DNA of 64,000 nucleotides from Rickettsiales bacterium. GTDB lineage: Bacteria; Pseudomonadota; Alphaproteobacteria; Rickettsiales; JABCZZ01. Both the position numbers and the translations under genes were made by a program. The stretch covers positions 224,322 to 288,321 of the forward strand of contig DASTXE010000001.1 in assembly GCA_035765535.1 (NCBI GenBank), in the 5' to 3' direction. The notes under the pieces are model-generated. The model saw only the letters and a program-made list of their open reading frames with translations. It did not search any database and had not been told where the DNA came from. Shown here one piece after another: positions 7,938 to 17,242 of this stretch. Position 1 is the stretch's first letter. Every line of letters begins with the position of its first letter.

Positions 7938-9812
<1,875 letters not shown>

Positions 9813-11133: not shown

Positions 11134-11209
11134 GATCTGGTAGCTCAGTCGGTAGAGCACCTGACTTTTAATCAGGTTGTCGCGGGTTCGATTCCCGCCC
11201 AGATCACCA
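11134..11209 (+). tRNA. tRNA-Lys (anticodon UUU), CCA encoded
   Basis: Hand-folded cloverleaf: acceptor GATCTGG/CCAGATC, D stem GCTC/GAGC, anticodon stem CCTGA/TCAGG with loop CTTTTAA, T arm GCGGG-TTCGATT-CCCGC. Confidence 0.95.
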
Positions 11210-11219
11210 TTTTCCTCAA
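11164..11219. repeat. attL: left copy of the 56-bp direct repeat (3' part of tRNA-Lys plus 10 bp)
   Basis: Matches 17187-17242 with one mismatch, including 46 bp of perfect identity. The offset is 6023 bp. Confidence 0.85.
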
Positions 11220-12262
11220 GGATTTACCTCAATCAAATGGCAAAGCTGGTTAGCTGATTGTGCCGGAATCGTGTCTTGAAGCATGTTGTCTACGATCATT
11301 GCATGTTTCCCGAACTTCTCAGGAGCCAGATGTGCATAGCGTCTGACCATCTCGACAGACTCCCATGCCCCCATTTCCTGAATCACGTTCAGAGACACAC
11401 CACCTTGAGCTAACCAACTTGCCCAAGTATGCCGTAGATCATGCCAACGGAAGTCTTCAATTCCAGCTTCTTTTAATGCATTATACCAAGCTTTTGTTGT
11501 TACCTGACCAATAGGATTTCCCTTGTAGGTAAAAACCCGCTTTGGATGTTTACCCAACTGGTTCAGCAATACATCAATCGCCGTAGCATTAAGCGAAACG
11601 TGAATATCCCTTCCGCCCTTGGCTTGGTCTGCATATATCCACGCCACTTTACGCGGTATGTCTATCTGTGACCATTCCAATTCAAGCACGTTTGACTGGC
11701 GTAGTCCGGTAGCAAGTGAAAACCTTACTATATCGACCAGATGTTCTGGTAGTTTAGTAAGTAGTGTCAGCACTTGTTCCGGCGTTAGCCAACGGACACG
11801 CCTTTTAGGTTCAGGATAAAGCCGGATACGCGGAGCTTTATCAATCCATTCCCATTCAAAGGCAGCCCGGCGAAGGATAGAACGAATCAGAGCAAGAACA
11901 CGGTTTGCTGTAGCAGCACTGTTGTTCTCTTTCTTCTTAGCTCCAACCTCTGCAATCACGTCACGCGTTAGGTCTGTTAAAAGCTTGCCCCTAAAGAATT
12001 GTTGTAACCACCGTATAGTGTCCACATCCATCTGATGTGTTTTCTTATGCGAGGTTTCCTGCAACCATTTCAGGGCAGCTTCGTCCCAACTGCGTTTTGG
12101 CTTCTCTCCTAACTGCTCAGTCCGCCACGATTCGGCTTTTAGCTTGTCGTGGTATTCCTGAGCGGCTTTCTTGTCTTCTGTGCGAGCAGAGCATCTAATG
12201 CGCTGGCCGCTTGGTGTGGTGAAACTAATCCACCACGTGTTTCCGCGTTTAGTGAGTGACAT
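11216..12262 (-). CDS. int: tyrosine-type site-specific integrase (P4-like)
   Basis: C-terminal catalytic region HDLRHTWASWLAQGG...RYAH, and N-terminal SAM-like domain (GNTWWISF). Confidence 0.9.
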   Translation of the reverse strand: MSLTKRGNTWWISFTTPSGQRIRCSARTEDKKAAQEYHDKLKAESWRTEQLGEKPKRSWDEAALKWLQETSHKKTHQMDVDTIRWLQQFFRGKLLTDLTRDVIAEVGAKKKENNSAATANRVLALIRSILRRAAFEWEWIDKAPRIRLYPEPKRRVRWLTPEQVLTLLTKLPEHLVDIVRFSLATGLRQSNVLELEWSQIDIPRKVAWIYADQAKGGRDIHVSLNATAIDVLLNQLGKHPKRVFTYKGNPIGQVTTKAWYNALKEAGIEDFRWHDLRHTWASWLAQGGVSLNVIQEMGAWESVEMVRRYAHLAPEKFGKHAMIVDNMLQDTIPAQSANQLCHLIEVNP

Positions 12263-12468
12263 TCAGGGGTCTCCTTATACTGCACTCGCAACGCTTGCCA
12301 AGAAGGGTTATACCGGGAACGCAAGTATTCCGCAAGGTCGTCATCAATGAAGACCCAGCATTTGCCAGCCTTCGCACCGGGAATAACGCCTAACTTAGCT
12401 TTGCGCCGCACTTCTTCCGGGTGCATCTTGAGGAAGGTTGCAGCTTCTTTGAGGTTAAGCGTTATCAT
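12139..12468 (-). CDS. excisionase/AlpA-like helix-turn-helix DNA-binding protein
   Basis: N-terminus MITLNLKEAATFLKMHPEEVRRKAKLGVIPGAKAGKCWVFIDDDLAEYL fits the excisionase-family HTH pattern. The start at 12468 is coupled (TAATG) to the upstream ORF's stop. The 3' end overlaps int. Confidence 0.6.
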   Translation of the reverse strand: MITLNLKEAATFLKMHPEEVRRKAKLGVIPGAKAGKCWVFIDDDLAEYLRSRYNPSWQALRVQYKETPECHSLNAETRGGLVSPHQAASALDALLAQKTRKPLRNTTTS

Positions 12469-12698
12469 TAGTGATGCTCCGGATTGCATTGCCTGCAACG
12501 ACATTCATCTTGAGTCGTATCATGTGCTATACAAGGCTCAAACTTATGGCATGGATATAAGGCTTGCGTGCCAGCATTTATAAAATGAATTTGAAACAGT
12601 GTTTTATAATCGGTCGCATAACCAGCCTTCATGCATGTAAAGCAGGTACAAAGAACTTTTTTGCCTGAGGGAGTTGTATAAAAGGTGGTACTACTCAT
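12468..12698 (-). CDS. small Cys-rich protein (possible zinc-binding)
   Basis: 76 aa with clusters CTCFTC and CRCRQC. It overlaps the neighbouring genes at both ends, which suggests translational coupling. Confidence 0.45.
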   Translation of the reverse strand: MSSTTFYTTPSGKKVLCTCFTCMKAGYATDYKTLFQIHFINAGTQALYPCHKFEPCIAHDTTQDECRCRQCNPEHH

Positions 12699-13599
12699 GA
12701 CTACCCTCCACCGGAGAGAGTTTACGAGGAGAATTTAAAATCAGATGAAGGTAGATATCGTCATTGATCGTGGAAATATCAAAAGGCAAAACATCAAAAC
12801 TGCTTATTTCAGCCTGTTGTAATCGCAATGTAGATAAATCCAGCACAAATGGGCTACGGAAGGAATAACCAATGGTTTCATTATACCAGTAGCCAGCAAA
12901 GCGCTTTTTTACTCTATCACCAACCTCCGTTATTTTGCGAAGCCATGCATCCAATGACCAGTAATGTGCTATAGCCCTTGCATAAGATGAAATTCCAGAG
13001 AAACCATATGTTTTAGCACCCTTGGGATACTGACAATGTTTGCTTTCCCACTTACTGAGATATTTTGCCATGTAACTGGATGGATTTCTTACCCACTTCA
13101 CATTGCTAGAGCCATGCTTCCACCAACCTTGTTTATCAGGCATTGGCGGAGTGATACCGGAGGGTAGAAAGATAGCCAAATGGTAATGGGGTTTGCCCGA
13201 TCTCATAAGTTCCATTACCCAGACGACTTTTAACTTTATCCTACGGGTACGAGCCCAAGACCTATAACAGTCCTGAAGACGTTTTATGTCGTAAGGATGA
13301 TAAGCTGCATCCGGTCGATAAGTGAGAGTAACAAAGGCGCATTTACTTTTATCTTCCCCGCATTCAGAAGCGCACTGCAACAACACGTGAAAAACGATGC
13401 GCGAGATCTTACTAAGTCTTCGTCTTTGATTAAGTCCGTCTAAGACATTATCGGAGTATGATGTGGTAGAGGAGTGTGAGCTAGTTTTCATAAACTCTCT
13501 TTCCATAAGGTTTACCCAATCGCCGACCGGCGCATTGGTGAACCGCATTGAGAGAAATGATGAACAGCCCAAGCAGTTCCTATGTGGTAACTTTATCAC
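12691..13599 (-). CDS. HUH rolling-circle replication initiator (phiX174 gpA / P2 gpA-like)
   Basis: Motif I FVTLTY, motif II (HUH) PHYHLAIF, motif III with two tyrosines YMAKYLSK. The exact start is uncertain. Confidence 0.7.
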   Translation of the reverse strand: MIKLPHRNCLGCSSFLSMRFTNAPVGDWVNLMEREFMKTSSHSSTTSYSDNVLDGLNQRRRLSKISRIVFHVLLQCASECGEDKSKCAFVTLTYRPDAAYHPYDIKRLQDCYRSWARTRRIKLKVVWVMELMRSGKPHYHLAIFLPSGITPPMPDKQGWWKHGSSNVKWVRNPSSYMAKYLSKWESKHCQYPKGAKTYGFSGISSYARAIAHYWSLDAWLRKITEVGDRVKKRFAGYWYNETIGYSFRSPFVLDLSTLRLQQAEISSFDVLPFDISTINDDIYLHLILNSPRKLSPVEGSHE

Positions 13600-13652
13600 A
13601 CATAGGAGCGGTAATCAATCACGTTTGACGAGATTAAATCCCGCTTAATGAA

Positions 13653-13991
13653 TTATTTTAATTTTTCAACCTGATTAGTGCGTATGCCCGGAATATGGCC
13701 GCTTACTGCTTTCCAGAAATTTGAAGCTTTTTGAGCGAGCTTCCATGCAACTGATTTATCTGATAATTCCCCAACTTCAGGTAAAACATCCCGGAATTCT
13801 ATACCAAGTATCTTTTCATACTTTCTAAGGGTTTTCTTATCGTGCATGAGTAATAAAGGTTTCCAGCCAACATGACGGCCAAAGACTAAGGCGCCTATAG
13901 CAGTCTCCATCTCCGTGCATATCCCGGAGAAGTCTTTAGCAGCGGCATCAATGATTTTTAATAGCTCTTTATCATTCATGGGGGGCTCCAT
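13653..13991 (-). CDS. hypothetical protein, first gene of the element's leftward operon
   Basis: 112-aa ORF on the same strand as Rep/Xis/Int. No motif recognised. Confidence 0.45.
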   Translation of the reverse strand: MEPPMNDKELLKIIDAAAKDFSGICTEMETAIGALVFGRHVGWKPLLLMHDKKTLRKYEKILGIEFRDVLPEVGELSDKSVAWKLAQKASNFWKAVSGHIPGIRTNQVEKLK

Positions 13992-14227
13992 AAGCGAGTA
14001 CCAACACCGCTTATACTACGTTATCAAGAAGCAAAAAGCTATTAAATGATACTAGAGGACACAAACGAGCAATAACACGAGCTGATGTATTACTTGTTAC
14101 AATAAGAGACAAGCCCAGCACTTGCTAGCCGCCGTCCTCACTCCGTTGCGGGCGGGGCGCAAGAAAGTACTGGCAATTTACTGATTGATAATTAATATTT
14201 GATACCTAAATAACTAATTGTAATTTT

Positions 14228-16300
14228 ATGACTGAAGAAAGAAATCCTCAACAGCATATAATTAATATCCTTAAGAATACCAAGGAACACCACCCTAATT
14301 TTGCATTGTTTTTAGGGGCCGGAGCTAGTGTTACTAGTGGCATTCCATCAGCTAAAACTATGATTGAGGATTGGAGAAAACAATATCAGGATCGTACGCC
14401 ATCGACTGACATTAAGAGCAAACCGTGGTATGAAGATGAACAAGAATATTCAACGCTTTTTGAATTATTGTACGATCAGCCTAGCCAGCGTAGAGAATAT
14501 ATAGAAAAATGTGTTAATAACGCTACCCCTTCTTGGGGATATATCTACCTAGTTAATCTATTACAAAAAGTTTTTAACACTGTTTTTACGACTAATTTCG
14601 ATGATTTGCTAAACGAGGCTTGTTATCTGTATTCAAACTCAACTAGGCCAATTGTATGCGCGCATGATTCAAGTATTTACTCAGTTAGAATAACTACCAA
14701 ACGCCCCAAAATAATAAAGCTTCATGGAGATTTTTTATTTGATAACATTAAGAACACCTCTCGAGAACTAGAAACTCTTGAAGAGAATATACGAAATAAA
14801 TTTAAACAATATGCGTCAGAATTTGGCTTAATTGTTATAGGTTATGCAGGCCATGATAGATCGGTCATGGATACGTTGAATGCTCTCTTACGTACAGAAA
14901 CAAACTTTCCTCATGGTGTTTATTGGTGCGTTAGGAAAGGCAGCAAACTAAGTAAGAAAGTGGAAGATTTAAACAGGTTTCCTCAATTTCATATTGTTGA
15001 GATTGAAGGCTTCGACCAGTTTTTTGCTGAATTGCATTCACAATTAGACATGTCTTTGCAAAAAGAAATGTCGGATCCTTATAATGCACTTACAGAAAGA
15101 TTAAATAATTTAATAAATAGTGCCAATATACCTGTTGGCTTAGAAAATAATCCTAATAAAAAATCACCAACACATTCAATTATTGCTTCAGATATTGCTA
15201 AATTAGTTGAGCAAATAAAAAGCAGCTTTGTAGGCGATTCTAATAAATCTCGGGAAGTACCTGCCTCTTCAGTAGCCCAACAAGCTTCACCACCATACCA
15301 ATTAATGGCTCAGCAACAATGGCAAAAAGGTGAAGTTACTGAAGCTAAGAAGACAATTATCAAGCAACTTGAGACGCAACCAACTATAAGCGCTTTTAAT
15401 ACAGCTTTTGAGCTATTAAATATCGTTTGGGATGATGTTACAGGGCAGCATGTTATAAAAGTTCTTAAGGAACGGGAAGATATTATAGCAAGTAATCCAA
15501 ATTGCGTGCACAATTTTGCGGTCAGCTTAATTAATACACAACAGTTTTCATATGCTGAAGAGGTTTTAAATATAGGCTTTGAAGTCGATAGAAGAAATAA
15601 GCAATCCTTATTTAACAAGGAATATTTTTATCTTAATAAAGCACAAATTTGTTTATGGTCTCAAAAGCCTATCGATCCGTCATTAAAAGAAAATATTGAA
15701 ATATTACAAAATAGTGCAAAAAAAGATATACGGCTAGGAGCTTCAATAATTCTTGGCCAGTATGAGGAAGCAAAAAATATTCTTCTTGCTTACAGCAAAA
15801 ATGAATTTATGAGCAAAATCGTCTGGCCTATTCTTTTATTTATTCCTGAGGATATTCAGGCAGAGATACTGAAAAAACAAATTTACTTATGCGATAATCC
15901 TAATAATGCATTTTATTATGCTATTTATTATATAAAATTTAAGAGATTCAAATTAGCTGAAACAGTGCTAAAAATAGCCTACGATTGTAATCAAAAAGGG
16001 CTTACCAAAGTTCCTTTGGATAATAATTATTATCTTCTGAATAAAGCTCAGATAAAATTACATCAAAGTAAAAAGTTACCACCAGCAGAAGTAGCCAAGA
16101 TACAAGAATTGCTGACTTCACCGGAACCACTTGTGCGGATAGGAGCTCATATAGTCCTTGGGCAGACTGAGCAAGCTGAAAATCTATATAAAGAGGTTAA
16201 AAATGAGGCAATCAGACAATGGCCTATTTTCCAGCTCTTAAATAAGAATATGCAAGCCCCAGTACCTAAAAAACCAGAATTAATTAAGAGTAACAAGTAA
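14228..16300 (+). CDS. SIR2-family (SIR2_2-like) NAD-binding domain protein with duplicated helical C-terminal region
   Basis: Motifs GAGAS (aa 30-34), TTNFD (N123), KLHGD (H166) and IGYAGHD. The C-terminal ~330 aa are helical, with two paralogous ~115-aa modules. Confidence 0.8.
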   Translation: MTEERNPQQHIINILKNTKEHHPNFALFLGAGASVTSGIPSAKTMIEDWRKQYQDRTPSTDIKSKPWYEDEQEYSTLFELLYDQPSQRREYIEKCVNNATPSWGYIYLVNLLQKVFNTVFTTNFDDLLNEACYLYSNSTRPIVCAHDSSIYSVRITTKRPKIIKLHGDFLFDNIKNTSRELETLEENIRNKFKQYASEFGLIVIGYAGHDRSVMDTLNALLRTETNFPHGVYWCVRKGSKLSKKVEDLNRFPQFHIVEIEGFDQFFAELHSQLDMSLQKEMSDPYNALTERLNNLINSANIPVGLENNPNKKSPTHSIIASDIAKLVEQIKSSFVGDSNKSREVPASSVAQQASPPYQLMAQQQWQKGEVTEAKKTIIKQLETQPTISAFNTAFELLNIVWDDVTGQHVIKVLKEREDIIASNPNCVHNFAVSLINTQQFSYAEEVLNIGFEVDRRNKQSLFNKEYFYLNKAQICLWSQKPIDPSLKENIEILQNSAKKDIRLGASIILGQYEEAKNILLAYSKNEFMSKIVWPILLFIPEDIQAEILKKQIYLCDNPNNAFYYAIYYIKFKRFKLAETVLKIAYDCNQKGLTKVPLDNNYYLLNKAQIKLHQSKKLPPAEVAKIQELLTSPEPLVRIGAHIVLGQTEQAENLYKEVKNEAIRQWPIFQLLNKNMQAPVPKKPELIKSNK

Positions 16301-16346
16301 ATCAATATTAGGAATAATTGTTAATAGAATAATAAAAAGACTTAAT

Positions 16347-17060
16347 ATGGCAGTAAAACTACGAAATAGCATAATAAAAAGCATATATAACCATCTTGAG
16401 ATATCAGGCTTTTCCCTCCGAGACTTCAAAATAAATACAGATCACGGACAATATTTGGCACATATTGTATTTATTCCAAAGCCCGAGTATGAGTTTATTA
16501 TTACAGAAAAGGACTATGCAGCTAAAAGTATTGCTAGCATTGTGAGTCTTACTACGCAGCCAGAAGATTTAAAATTAACTACAGTTGAATCACCGGGAGA
16601 ATACAAAACAAGAGAAGTAACAAAACATAGTACTATTCATGAATGCATCAATAGAATCCGTGACTGGTGCCAAAATATAAAAGAAGATTTAGCGACTAGA
16701 ATTCCTCTTCAAAAAGAGCTAGACGAATTTGAAATTGAAATTGAGCAGCGAATTAATGATGCCGCTGGCAATAGTCAGGAGCATTTTTCTGAGTCAGAAG
16801 TTAATAATTTAAATAATAAATTAGATAATTTCTTGGCAAAATTTGAAGAGCTTGAGAAAGCCAAAACAATTACAGAAAAAGAACTAAAAGAAATAAAAGC
16901 AGAACTGGAAAGATTAAAACGCACACTGCCTATGTATCAAAAAGATATTTGGTACAAGACTGCAGGCCATTCTCTTTTAGATATGACAAAAAAAGTATTT
17001 AAAACAAAGGAAGGAAGAGAATTTCTTTTTGACGCAGCAAAAAAATTCTTTCTTGAATAG
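16347..17060 (+). CDS. hypothetical protein with C-terminal coiled coil, partner of the SIR2 gene
   Basis: 237-aa ORF lying 46 nt downstream on the same strand with the same AT-rich composition. Heptad-like segment KFEELEKAKTITEKELKEIKAELERLKRTL. Confidence 0.6.
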   Translation: MAVKLRNSIIKSIYNHLEISGFSLRDFKINTDHGQYLAHIVFIPKPEYEFIITEKDYAAKSIASIVSLTTQPEDLKLTTVESPGEYKTREVTKHSTIHECINRIRDWCQNIKEDLATRIPLQKELDEFEIEIEQRINDAAGNSQEHFSESEVNNLNNKLDNFLAKFEELEKAKTITEKELKEIKAELERLKRTLPMYQKDIWYKTAGHSLLDMTKKVFKTKEGREFLFDAAKKFFLE

Positions 17061-17186
17061 ACGTGCCAATCTTGTGTCATCGCATTATTAAAAATATAAT
17101 GTTTGATATGTATTTGAGATTGGAATGGCACACTGGCAAGCGTCACAAGTATATGAATAATAATAAATATAGGTTTTATTCTTCAA

Positions 17187-17242
17187 ACTTTTAATCAGGT
17201 TGTCGCGGGTTCGATTCCCGCCCAGATCACCACTTTCCTCAA
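17187..17242. repeat. attR: right copy of the direct repeat (partial tRNA-Lys 3' end)
   Basis: 55 of 56 bp identical to 11164-11219. It lacks the 5' half of the tRNA. Confidence 0.85.

Follow-up and report, generated by a model that had tools for sequence, protein, structure and literature searches.

The DNA analysed here, a stretch of 64,000 nt from a Rickettsiales bacterium (contig DASTXE010000001.1; hereafter, the window), contains an element of about 6 kb that is integrated in a gene for tRNA-Lys(UUU). This unit of 6,023 bp is made up of a small rolling-circle replicon, an integration module and approximately 3 kb of cargo (Table 1). In particular, a minus-strand operon with the gene order p112-rep-xis-int lies behind an origin-like motif, and two plus-strand cargo genes, the first of them coding for a SIR2-TPR protein, are located on the other side. 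Genes for virion, packaging, relaxase, conjugation or secretion functions were not found among the open reading frames (ORFs) of the element in Pfam, PHROGs, NCBIfam and PADLOC, in agreement with an earlier note on this DNA, made from the letters alone, which had seen no structural, packaging or conjugation genes. Considered singly, the island is an ordinary tRNA-integrated defence island, and its novelty lies in the backbone, which, judged from its sequence, appears to define an as yet undescribed family of very small elements that carry cargo.

Table 1. Features of the integrated element and its borders (positions are those of the window; aa, amino acids)
Feature	Position	Strand	Evidence or remark
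tRNA-Lys(UUU), anticodon ttt	11134–11209	+	ARAGORN; Rfam RF00005, 79 bits; intact
attL, 56-nt repeat copy	11164–11219	+	tRNA position 31 to 10 nt beyond the CCA end
Tyrosine integrase, 348 aa	11216–12262	−	PF00589 2.2e-32; phrog_1 2e-66
Excisionase/AlpA-like HTH_17 protein, ORF of 121 aa	12139–12504	−	PF12728 5.8e-9; phrog_2907 excisionase 1e-13
ORF of 76 aa between rep and xis, doubtful gene	12468–12698	−	no family match; no tblastn match in related loci
Rep, HUH rolling-circle initiator of the inovirus gpII type, 271 aa	12691–13506	−	PF23343 6.8e-28; phrog_2969
p112, conserved backbone protein, 112 aa	13653–13991	−	97 homologues, best 73% identical
Putative replication origin (nick or Rep-binding site)	14094–14116	−	GGGCTTGTCTCTTATTGTAACAA, inverted repeat CTTGT/ACAAG
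SIR2-TPR protein (cargo 1), 690 aa	14228–16300	+	PF13289 (SIR2_2) 8.7e-15
p237, coiled-coil protein (cargo 2), 237 aa	16347–17060	+	weak coiled-coil matches
Non-coding stretch of 126 nt directly before attR	17061–17186		
attR, second repeat copy (3′ tRNA fragment + 10 nt)	17187–17242	+	repeat search
Gene just outside attR, 240 aa	17282–18004	+	PADLOC candidate PDC-S05 (1e-16); NCBIfam VPA1262 N-terminal domain

The 5′ part of the tRNA gene is chromosomal, while its 3′ part, from position 31 onwards, lies within the att repeat. This repeat, which comprises the last 46 nt of the tRNA and 10 downstream bases, was recovered by a repeat finder as two direct copies that are identical at 55 of 56 positions and spaced by 6,023 bp, the single mismatch being the first base past the CCA end (T in attL, at 11210, and C in attR, at 17233). 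Moreover, the integrase and tRNA genes are convergent, and the former terminates at a distance of 7 nt from the tRNA 3′ end, with its stop codon inside attL. A complete tRNA-Lys(UUU), a 56-nt repeat with one mismatch and an integrase directly next to the tRNA had all been described in the earlier note, which took them as attL and attR of a tRNA-targeted integration that regenerates the tRNA, and the repeat, the intact tRNA and the base composition bear this out. The locus thus shows the hallmarks of a tRNA-targeted genomic island, namely an adjoining tyrosine integrase and a copy of the tRNA 3′ end at the far border, with the tRNA itself intact. When a 25-mer from the att repeat was sought with 3 mismatches allowed, it occurred exactly twice in the window (0 expected from 100 shuffles), and no third, degenerate att copy was detected on either side of the element or within it, the best local alignments falling within the shuffle range. 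Regarding base composition, the G+C content (GC) was 0.53–0.58 in the flanks, 0.43–0.46 at 11–14 kb and 0.32–0.37 at 14–17 kb, the only strongly low-GC block of the window being the one bracketed by attL and attR. The cargo was 10 points below the backbone and the backbone 10 points below the host, which suggests that the two were gained stepwise. Furthermore, an Rfam scan returned the tRNA as its sole match, a scan for promoters and terminators gave results not above chance, and a search of the whole element against annotated phages and plasmids matched only the tRNA, the integrase and SIR2 fragments.

The integration module was found to be intact, as were the xis-like and rep genes, which confirms what had been stated of the three in the earlier note. 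All of the integrase residues R188, H274-x-x-R277, W300 and Y309 are kept. The gene of the excisionase, for which M13 at 12468 is the probable start, overlaps with its 3′ end the start of the integrase gene by 124 nt (12139–12262) in a different frame. This overlap is kept in two relatives described below (L161 and L216), whose excisionases are 67–71% identical to that of the window over residues 12–121, overlap included, so it is real coding sequence, though the Logan gene call omits the excisionase. The integrase of the window is 73% identical to that of L161 and 75% identical to that of L216; these integrases (window 11216–12262, L161 12862–13911 and L216 11084–12109) target Lys-UUU, Phe-GAA and Thr-GGU, respectively, which means that target switching occurs at a small sequence distance. 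The att repeat of the window starts one base ahead of the anticodon loop, and in four elements with this type of integrase the identity block begins at tRNA position 31–32, whichever the tRNA. Integrases that target tRNA genes are known for a sublocation preference, with strand exchange in the anticodon loop, and the start of the identity block fits such an exchange.

The replication module consists of Rep, p112 and the origin-like motif. The family of Rep, PF23343, is named Replication-associated protein ORF2/G2P, and the motifs TLTYR (60–64), HYH (107–109) and Y145-x-x-K-Y149 are intact and correspond to invariant columns in an alignment of 30 sequences, the last of them being the two-tyrosine signature of initiators of the phiX174 A type. 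Its closest annotated relatives were gpII of filamentous phages of Xanthomonas, at 29% identity, and the Rep of plasmids of 1.45–1.6 kb in PLSDB, at 28–40%. The gene calls of Rep differ, as the NCBI protein has 171 aa and starts after motif 1, the Logan call has 271 aa, and the open frame continues from the ATG at 13506 to 13599, giving 302 aa. As the alignments with homologues begin at about residue 53 of this longest frame, the 171-aa call is too short. The protein p112 is encoded by the first gene of the operon, and this position suggests a regulator. None of its 97 homologues had a Pfam domain, and its AlphaFold2 model is all-alpha, with a pLDDT of 94.

The origin-like motif, GGGCTTGTC-N-AACAAG, is present in a single copy in the window, on the rep strand of the SIR2/p112 intergenic region. 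A comparison of shared k-mers in the non-coding parts of small circular relatives yielded no motif, and it emerged via the peptide GLVxxxTS, which is common to most Reps and located ~50 residues ahead of motif 1. In L085 and L087, two of the related loci, the corresponding stretch precedes the start codon and contains stop codons. The DNA form of the motif is CTGGGCTTGTC, followed by 7–10 variable bases and AACAAGT, with invariant codons and inverted arms (CTTGT/ACAAG), and it is conserved at the DNA level even where it is out of frame and interrupted by stops. A strict version, GGGCTTGT-N5-14-ACAA on the rep strand, was found in 61 of the 74 distinct Rep loci that had enough upstream sequence, compared to a background of 3 matches in 3.04 Mb of unrelated loci, and its usual position was 336–384 nt upstream of the PDKQGW codon. 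From this conservation we infer that the motif may be the site recognized and nicked by Rep.

A total of 123 distinct Rep loci were classified with purpose-built hidden Markov models (HMMs), the Pfam Zot domain being confirmed on six of them. Zot-encoding loci, that is, true inoviruses, amounted to 47, many of them circular with 4.7–7.6 kb and nearly all with the motif, while 15 had an integrase and no Zot, one had both (L095), 12 were circular contigs of 1.13–1.64 kb with only Rep or p112 + Rep, and 48 were fragments or unclassified. The gene for p112 was found in 9 integrase-bearing loci and in small circles, and in none of the 48 Zot-encoding loci; this restriction to the Zot-less forms points to a separate adapted lineage rather than to random decay. 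The small circles encode just Rep, or p112 and Rep, plus the origin-like motif. In particular, the ori-p112-rep order of the window is that of the complete circles of 1,482–1,643 bp L149, L160 and L171, and ~1.45 kb of the element (12691–14117) correspond to an entire free replicon. The plasmids of 1.45–1.6 kb with a related Rep in PLSDB come from Acinetobacter towneri, Halomonas and Sulfuricurvum. With 1.1–1.6 kb, such circles are among the smallest replicons imaginable. Circular metagenomic contigs of 1,128–1,643 bp were observed at L137–L142, L148, L149, L152, L154, L160, L170, L171, L192, L201 and L214. On the other hand, L095 was the only one of the 123 loci with a Zot gene and a tyrosine integrase beside Rep, and it is possibly an integrative inovirus of the type ancestral to the Zot-less elements.

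The genomic contexts of the Rep and p112 homologues revealed at least five further elements of 4.5–8.5 kb that have a common backbone, other tRNA genes as targets, perfect or near-perfect repeats and different cargo. L161 (5,321 bp) lies in a tRNA-Phe gene with a 45-nt repeat and carries a YfiR-like protein and one further protein without an assigned family; its integrase, excisionase and p112 are 73%, 67% and 55% identical to those of the window. The corresponding values for L216 (8,518 bp; tRNA-Thr(GGU); repeat identical at 50/52 nt) are 75%, 71% and 70%, and its cargo comprises a 1,340-aa protein, an HTH protein and DUF2726. L085 (5,527 bp) occupies tRNA-Thr(UGU) with a perfect repeat of 49 nt and carries NERD, HTH and TPR proteins, while L199 (4,968 bp), at tRNA-Lys(CUU) with a 46-nt repeat, carries AbiLi and AbiLii (PADLOC 1e-89 and 1e-22, respectively). 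L086 (4,457 bp) has a different type of integrase and lies in tRNA-Pro with a 25-nt repeat at the T-loop. Furthermore, L087 is a unitig of 6,555 bp in which no direct repeat was found, with an ORC/Cdc6-like ATPase and DUF2726 as cargo, and partial copies were seen at L198 (cargo PDC-S49/KAP NTPase), L195, L177, L182 and L184. As a side observation, a 490-aa cargo gene of L086 starts with ten 15-nt tandem repeats (12100–12300), which give a lysine-rich N-terminus (KKKTAKKKVG), and its product has no family match.

That one small backbone is found with intact repeats in various hosts, at various tRNAs and combined with various cargo is the strongest evidence available for mobile vehicles rather than remnants. 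It also upholds the view of the earlier note that the element appears to be a minimal vehicle for the SIR2 cargo, and the search for the cargo of other copies of the backbone that was proposed there returned AbiL, KAP NTPase, NERD and others. The origin-like motif, the conserved 112-aa backbone gene and a low-GC gene beyond attR are additions to that note. Elements with an integrase and no Zot that are based on an inovirus Rep and origin, p112 and the motif were not described in the literature covered by a full-text search of a limited collection.

An Asn and a His residue are known to have a role in sirtuins such as DSR and ThsA. Both are present in the SIR2_2 domain of the larger cargo protein, as N123 (TTNFDD) and H166 (KLHGD), so that this protein has the domain and the putative catalytic pair of the defence type, with a C-terminal helical-repeat region behind. 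Defence sirtuins (DSR/ThsA) use these residues for NAD+ hydrolysis (PMC10973363). In PADLOC, the protein matched SIR2 models of pAgo-associated systems (3e-70), a match that covers only its SIR2 part (residues 64–288), and PDC-S65 (3e-33). The family has more than 2,130 homologues, usually of 550–600 aa, which are also found in Vibrio and E. coli genomes; their contexts are varied and mobile, among them an 8.8-kb island with another type of integrase (L224–L226) and a position beside a Cap4 nuclease (L227–L230). An activity as anti-phage NADase is considered probable. Two named systems were tried for this protein and rejected: for Thoeris, there were only weak N-terminal ThsA matches (4e-6), with no SLOG domain and no TIR gene, and for SPARSA (pAgo-associated SIR2-APAZ), the match is only to the SIR2 part and the element has no Argonaute gene. 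Moreover, the Vibrio cyclitrophicus ‘PE’ records PQ189330.1 and PQ189367.1 contain DNA with ~67% identity to that portion of the cargo gene which codes for the SIR2 domain.

The second cargo protein, p237, had no curated family in Pfam, PHROGs, NCBIfam or PADLOC, and its own family comprises 368 cluster representatives, mostly full length and unannotated. A homologue that is 48% identical (L231) adjoins a pair of the defence type, made up of an AAA_15/AAA_21 ATPase and a DUF4276 protein. A two-gene system of SIR2 and p237 was rejected, as the SIR2-TPR homologues have other neighbours and the p237 homologue stands beside AAA_15/DUF4276; since p237 is not linked to SIR2 elsewhere, the two were treated as separate cargo genes.

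Overall, the element is best explained as an excisable integrative rolling-circle replicon with defence genes and in need of a helper, for which a filamentous phage is the most plausible candidate; a probability of roughly 0.7 is assigned to this explanation. There is little doubt that it is an integrative mobile element. Its Rep/origin pair would probably be functional as a rolling-circle replicon, and transfer by means of a helper is likely as well, while the proposal that this helper is an inovirus is clearly more tentative. As had been supposed in the earlier note, the element may be recent and still excisable. Int and Xis would excise it as a circle of 6,023 bp, Rep would nick this circle at the GGGCTTGTC...AACAAG motif, and the circle would be copied by rolling-circle replication via a single-stranded intermediate. 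The element would then travel with a helper, because no particle or mating pore of its own is possible. The SIR2-TPR protein would most likely be an NAD+-degrading abortive-infection effector, with which the element pays the host for being kept.

HUH initiators such as phiX174 A and Ff gpII release unit-length single-stranded circles, which are the substrate of filamentous-phage assembly and of conjugation, and not of tailed-phage capsids. As an HUH Rep makes such circles and the Rep/origin pair is the inovirus one, a filamentous phage is favoured, and the life style would be similar to that of RS1, but with an own tRNA integrase. Filamentous phages accordingly rank first among the conceivable helpers, at clearly less than even odds, followed by tailed phages in the manner of PICMI, with a smaller share, and by conjugative mobilisation, which is improbable; no transfer at all is a further alternative. 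RS1 and TLC, the satellites of CTXphi in Vibrio cholerae, have an inovirus-type initiator and origin and no morphogenesis genes, and their single-stranded circles are packaged by the helper filamentous phage. They rely on the host XerCD at dif and have no own integrase, and we know of no defence cargo in them. The element resembles them in its inovirus-type Rep and origin without morphogenesis genes and differs from them in its own tRNA integrase and its defence cargo, so that it may work like RS1 but is no member of that group. The filamentous prophages Cf1c/Lf of Xanthomonas have a homologous initiator (29% identity), and the same motif is present in environmental relatives; unlike them, the element lacks Zot/pI, coat and adsorption genes and has p112, which is missing in the Zot-encoding relatives. 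With respect to what defines inoviruses, the element thus has the gpII-type rolling-circle initiator (PF23343), while Zot/pI (PF05707) had no Pfam match in its ORFs and the Zot HMM found nothing in the whole window. Small rolling-circle plasmids (1.45–1.6 kb) have a Rep of the same family, and circular metagenomic replicons have the ori-p112-rep order, but these replicons are devoid of integrase, att site and cargo. A more far-reaching proposal, which we regard as speculative, is that of an undescribed class of integrase-bearing filamentous-phage satellites, in which an inovirus-derived ori-p112-rep replicon of 1.5 kb, also present in free form among the smallest circular replicons known, would have gained a tRNA integrase, carry anti-phage genes and be packaged as single-stranded DNA in the filament of the helper, p112 being a satellite-specific factor that controls or exploits this helper.

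Several observations weigh against this explanation. Neither an excised circle nor an empty attB nor a transfer event was observed, and the host was seen in one sample, SRR25158471, the only sequencing run in which exact-protein look-ups found the flanking and element proteins. In the Logan assembly of this run, the element is a contig of 6,037 bp, exactly 11180–17216 of the window, and the right-hand chromosomal contig starts at 17203. This contig was considered as evidence of a circle and rejected, given that it equals the predicted unitig: a graph with k=31 must yield a unitig of 6,037 bp between 46-nt exact repeats, and the start of the right-hand contig has the same cause, so that the Logan contigs neither support nor exclude a circle. 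The window harbours no candidate for the helper, with no Zot by HMM and no second Rep, and no packaging signal was recognised in the element. Moreover, folding of the motif region was no better than that of shuffled sequences (z −0.3 to −0.9) and the hairpin is weak, for which reason the motif is treated as sequence-conserved and not as structure-proven, and the p112 model had no fold match in PDB or BFVD. In L216, the closest backbone relative, the place of Rep is taken by a 448-aa protein without a Pfam match, and the motif is missing. The family can therefore exchange its replication module and is not bound to replication of the inovirus type. Such modules are exchangeable in other satellite families too. 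The replacing protein, at 9545–10891 of L216 and also present in L217, represents an apparent swap of the replication module. Finally, the nearest whole-protein model of the SIR2-TPR protein, PDC-S65, is itself only a candidate in PADLOC, and the anti-phage role of the family is a prediction.

Among the other explanations, the one that survives best is a satellite of tailed phages of the PICMI/VEIME type, with helper-induced excision, head-to-tail double-stranded concatemers and packaging in a normal-sized capsid, to which we give an outside chance. The PICMI of Vibrionaceae, at 6.1 kb, combine int and alpA with a single replication gene and defence cargo, and are defined by an integrase (PF00589/PF00239/PF07508), AlpA (PF05930/PF12728), a primase with DUF3987 (PF13148) or DUF5906 (PF19263), a site next to fis, and induction and packaging as a concatemer by a virulent helper phage; as in the element, one of their genes, which is essential, overlaps int (PMC10803314). 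The element, with 6.0 kb compared to the 6.1 kb of PICMI115, follows the same gene logic: an integrase (PF00589), an AlpA/HTH_17 regulator (PF12728) that overlaps or abuts int, one replication gene, 1–2 defence genes, no capsid or packaging genes and the need for a helper. However, its replication gene is a PF23343 HUH initiator with no match to DUF3987/DUF5906, it sits in tRNA-Lys and not by fis, its host is an uncultured alphaproteobacterium and its helper is more likely a single-stranded DNA phage. As both the primase and the fis site are missing, it is not a PICMI, which nevertheless represents the closest functional analogue. The unit-length single-stranded circles expected from Rep would also be badly suited to headful or cos packaging, a search of the element revealed nothing like a pac or cos site, and the Rep with its motif is common to Zot-encoding inoviruses and was found in no tailed-phage genome. 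The marine VEIMEs range from <5 to 16.8 kb and occur as double-stranded concatemers in tailed-phage particles, and inoviruses are unmentioned in the main text of their description (PMC9618062). Like them, the element is small, encodes an integrase, an excisionase and replication functions of plasmid type, and is free of capsid genes, but VEIMEs are defined by concatemers seen in particles.

Larger islands also speak for a tailed-phage helper, since a jumbo phage transduces the tmRNA/tRNA islands I23, I44 and I55 of Pseudomonas (23–55 kb, with RadC, YqaJ and others), in which int and alpA are accompanied by an ‘inovirus Gp2-like’ protein (PMC12595487). They are comparable to the element in that a tyrosine integrase lies at the 3′ end of a small-RNA gene, direct repeats flank the island, genes of the AlpA type and for a protein described as gpII-like occur together with defence cargo, and transfer genes are missing; unlike it, they are far larger and have many more core genes. 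Together with VEIMEs, they show that integrative hitchers which are small or carry Gp2 exist. With regard to P4-like satellites and PICI, none of their genes for capsid-size redirection, small terminase subunit or primase-helicase (sid, psu, delta, alpha; terS, ppi, cpm) was detected with Pfam, PHROGs and NCBIfam. The earlier note had called the element smaller than P4-like satellites and typical ICE/IMEs; its 6 kb compare with 10–15 kb for P4-like satellites and PICI, although the small size is not new in itself, in view of PICMI (6.1 kb) and VEIMEs.

An integrative mobilizable element, in which, after excision, the HUH Rep would act as relaxase and the motif as origin of transfer, and the single strand would leave through a type IV secretion system supplied by a conjugative element in the same cell, is improbable. 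HUH initiators and relaxases have a common chemistry. Int and xis are present together with a conserved motif resembling a nick site, and MOBT relaxases derive from rolling-circle Rep proteins (PMC11389934). However, no relaxase of a recognised MOB family was found with Pfam and NCBIfam, nor any family match to a coupling protein or type IV secretion system; PF23343 is no known MOB family, and small plasmids with this Rep are typed as non-mobilizable in PLSDB. Furthermore, the same Rep and motif run complete inoviruses and bare circles of 1.1–1.6 kb, which identifies them as a vegetative origin and its initiator. A decayed filamentous prophage that lost its morphogenesis genes, became fixed in the chromosome and later received SIR2 is equally hard to sustain: the replication module is of inovirus type, L095 combines Zot and an integrase, and no mobility was observed, yet at least six independent elements, located at different tRNAs between perfect or near-perfect repeats, have this minimal architecture in common, the backbone genes are all open with catalytic residues kept, att identity is 55/56, and p112 is confined to Zot-less forms. 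An assembly artefact, in which a foreign element of the metagenome was threaded into the contig via the shared 46-nt tRNA segment, is very unlikely, for although the source is a metagenome-assembled genome and the graph with k=31 has the element as a unitig of its own (6,037 bp), which is connected to its neighbours by nothing but the shared repeat, both junctions are covered by the deposited contig, the low-GC gene beside attR marks the site as a genuine hotspot of insertion, and the element-side copy matches the chromosome at 9/10 bases past the tRNA end, in sequence not conserved between species, which is expected only if attP is adapted to this locus.

Phage satellites and small islands are known vehicles of defence genes, and to our knowledge the well-studied carriers (P4-like, PICI, PLE and PICMI) all depend on tailed phages and replicate by primases or helicases. 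The minimal carrier design found here is based on a filamentous-phage replication module, across several lineages of bacteria and several target tRNAs. Should an inovirus prove to be the helper, defence-carrying satellites would be extended to single-stranded DNA phages, and the ~1.5 kb of essential sequence would offer a simple system for how such hitchers arise from viruses. For annotation purposes, the origin motif and the p112 family are practical markers of these elements, which current tools miss because they search for Zot, primases or capsid genes.

As for the surroundings, the neighbours of the tRNA-Lys site are thiC, a gene for an Ala/Pro-rich protein and metal-handling genes. In the nearest genomes, retrieved by a ThiC scan of a species-level collection, ThiC was 65–79% identical, with no synteny and no tRNA-Lys beside thiC. 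Low GC (0.38–0.42) extends ~790 bp past attR, to ~18030, over the 240-aa gene located just outside (38–42% GC vs. ~55% in the host). This gene looks like the leftover of an earlier insertion at the same tRNA-Lys, although a search for an att remnant there was negative, and its product contains a PLD-like HxR/GS motif (HDRFLFID).

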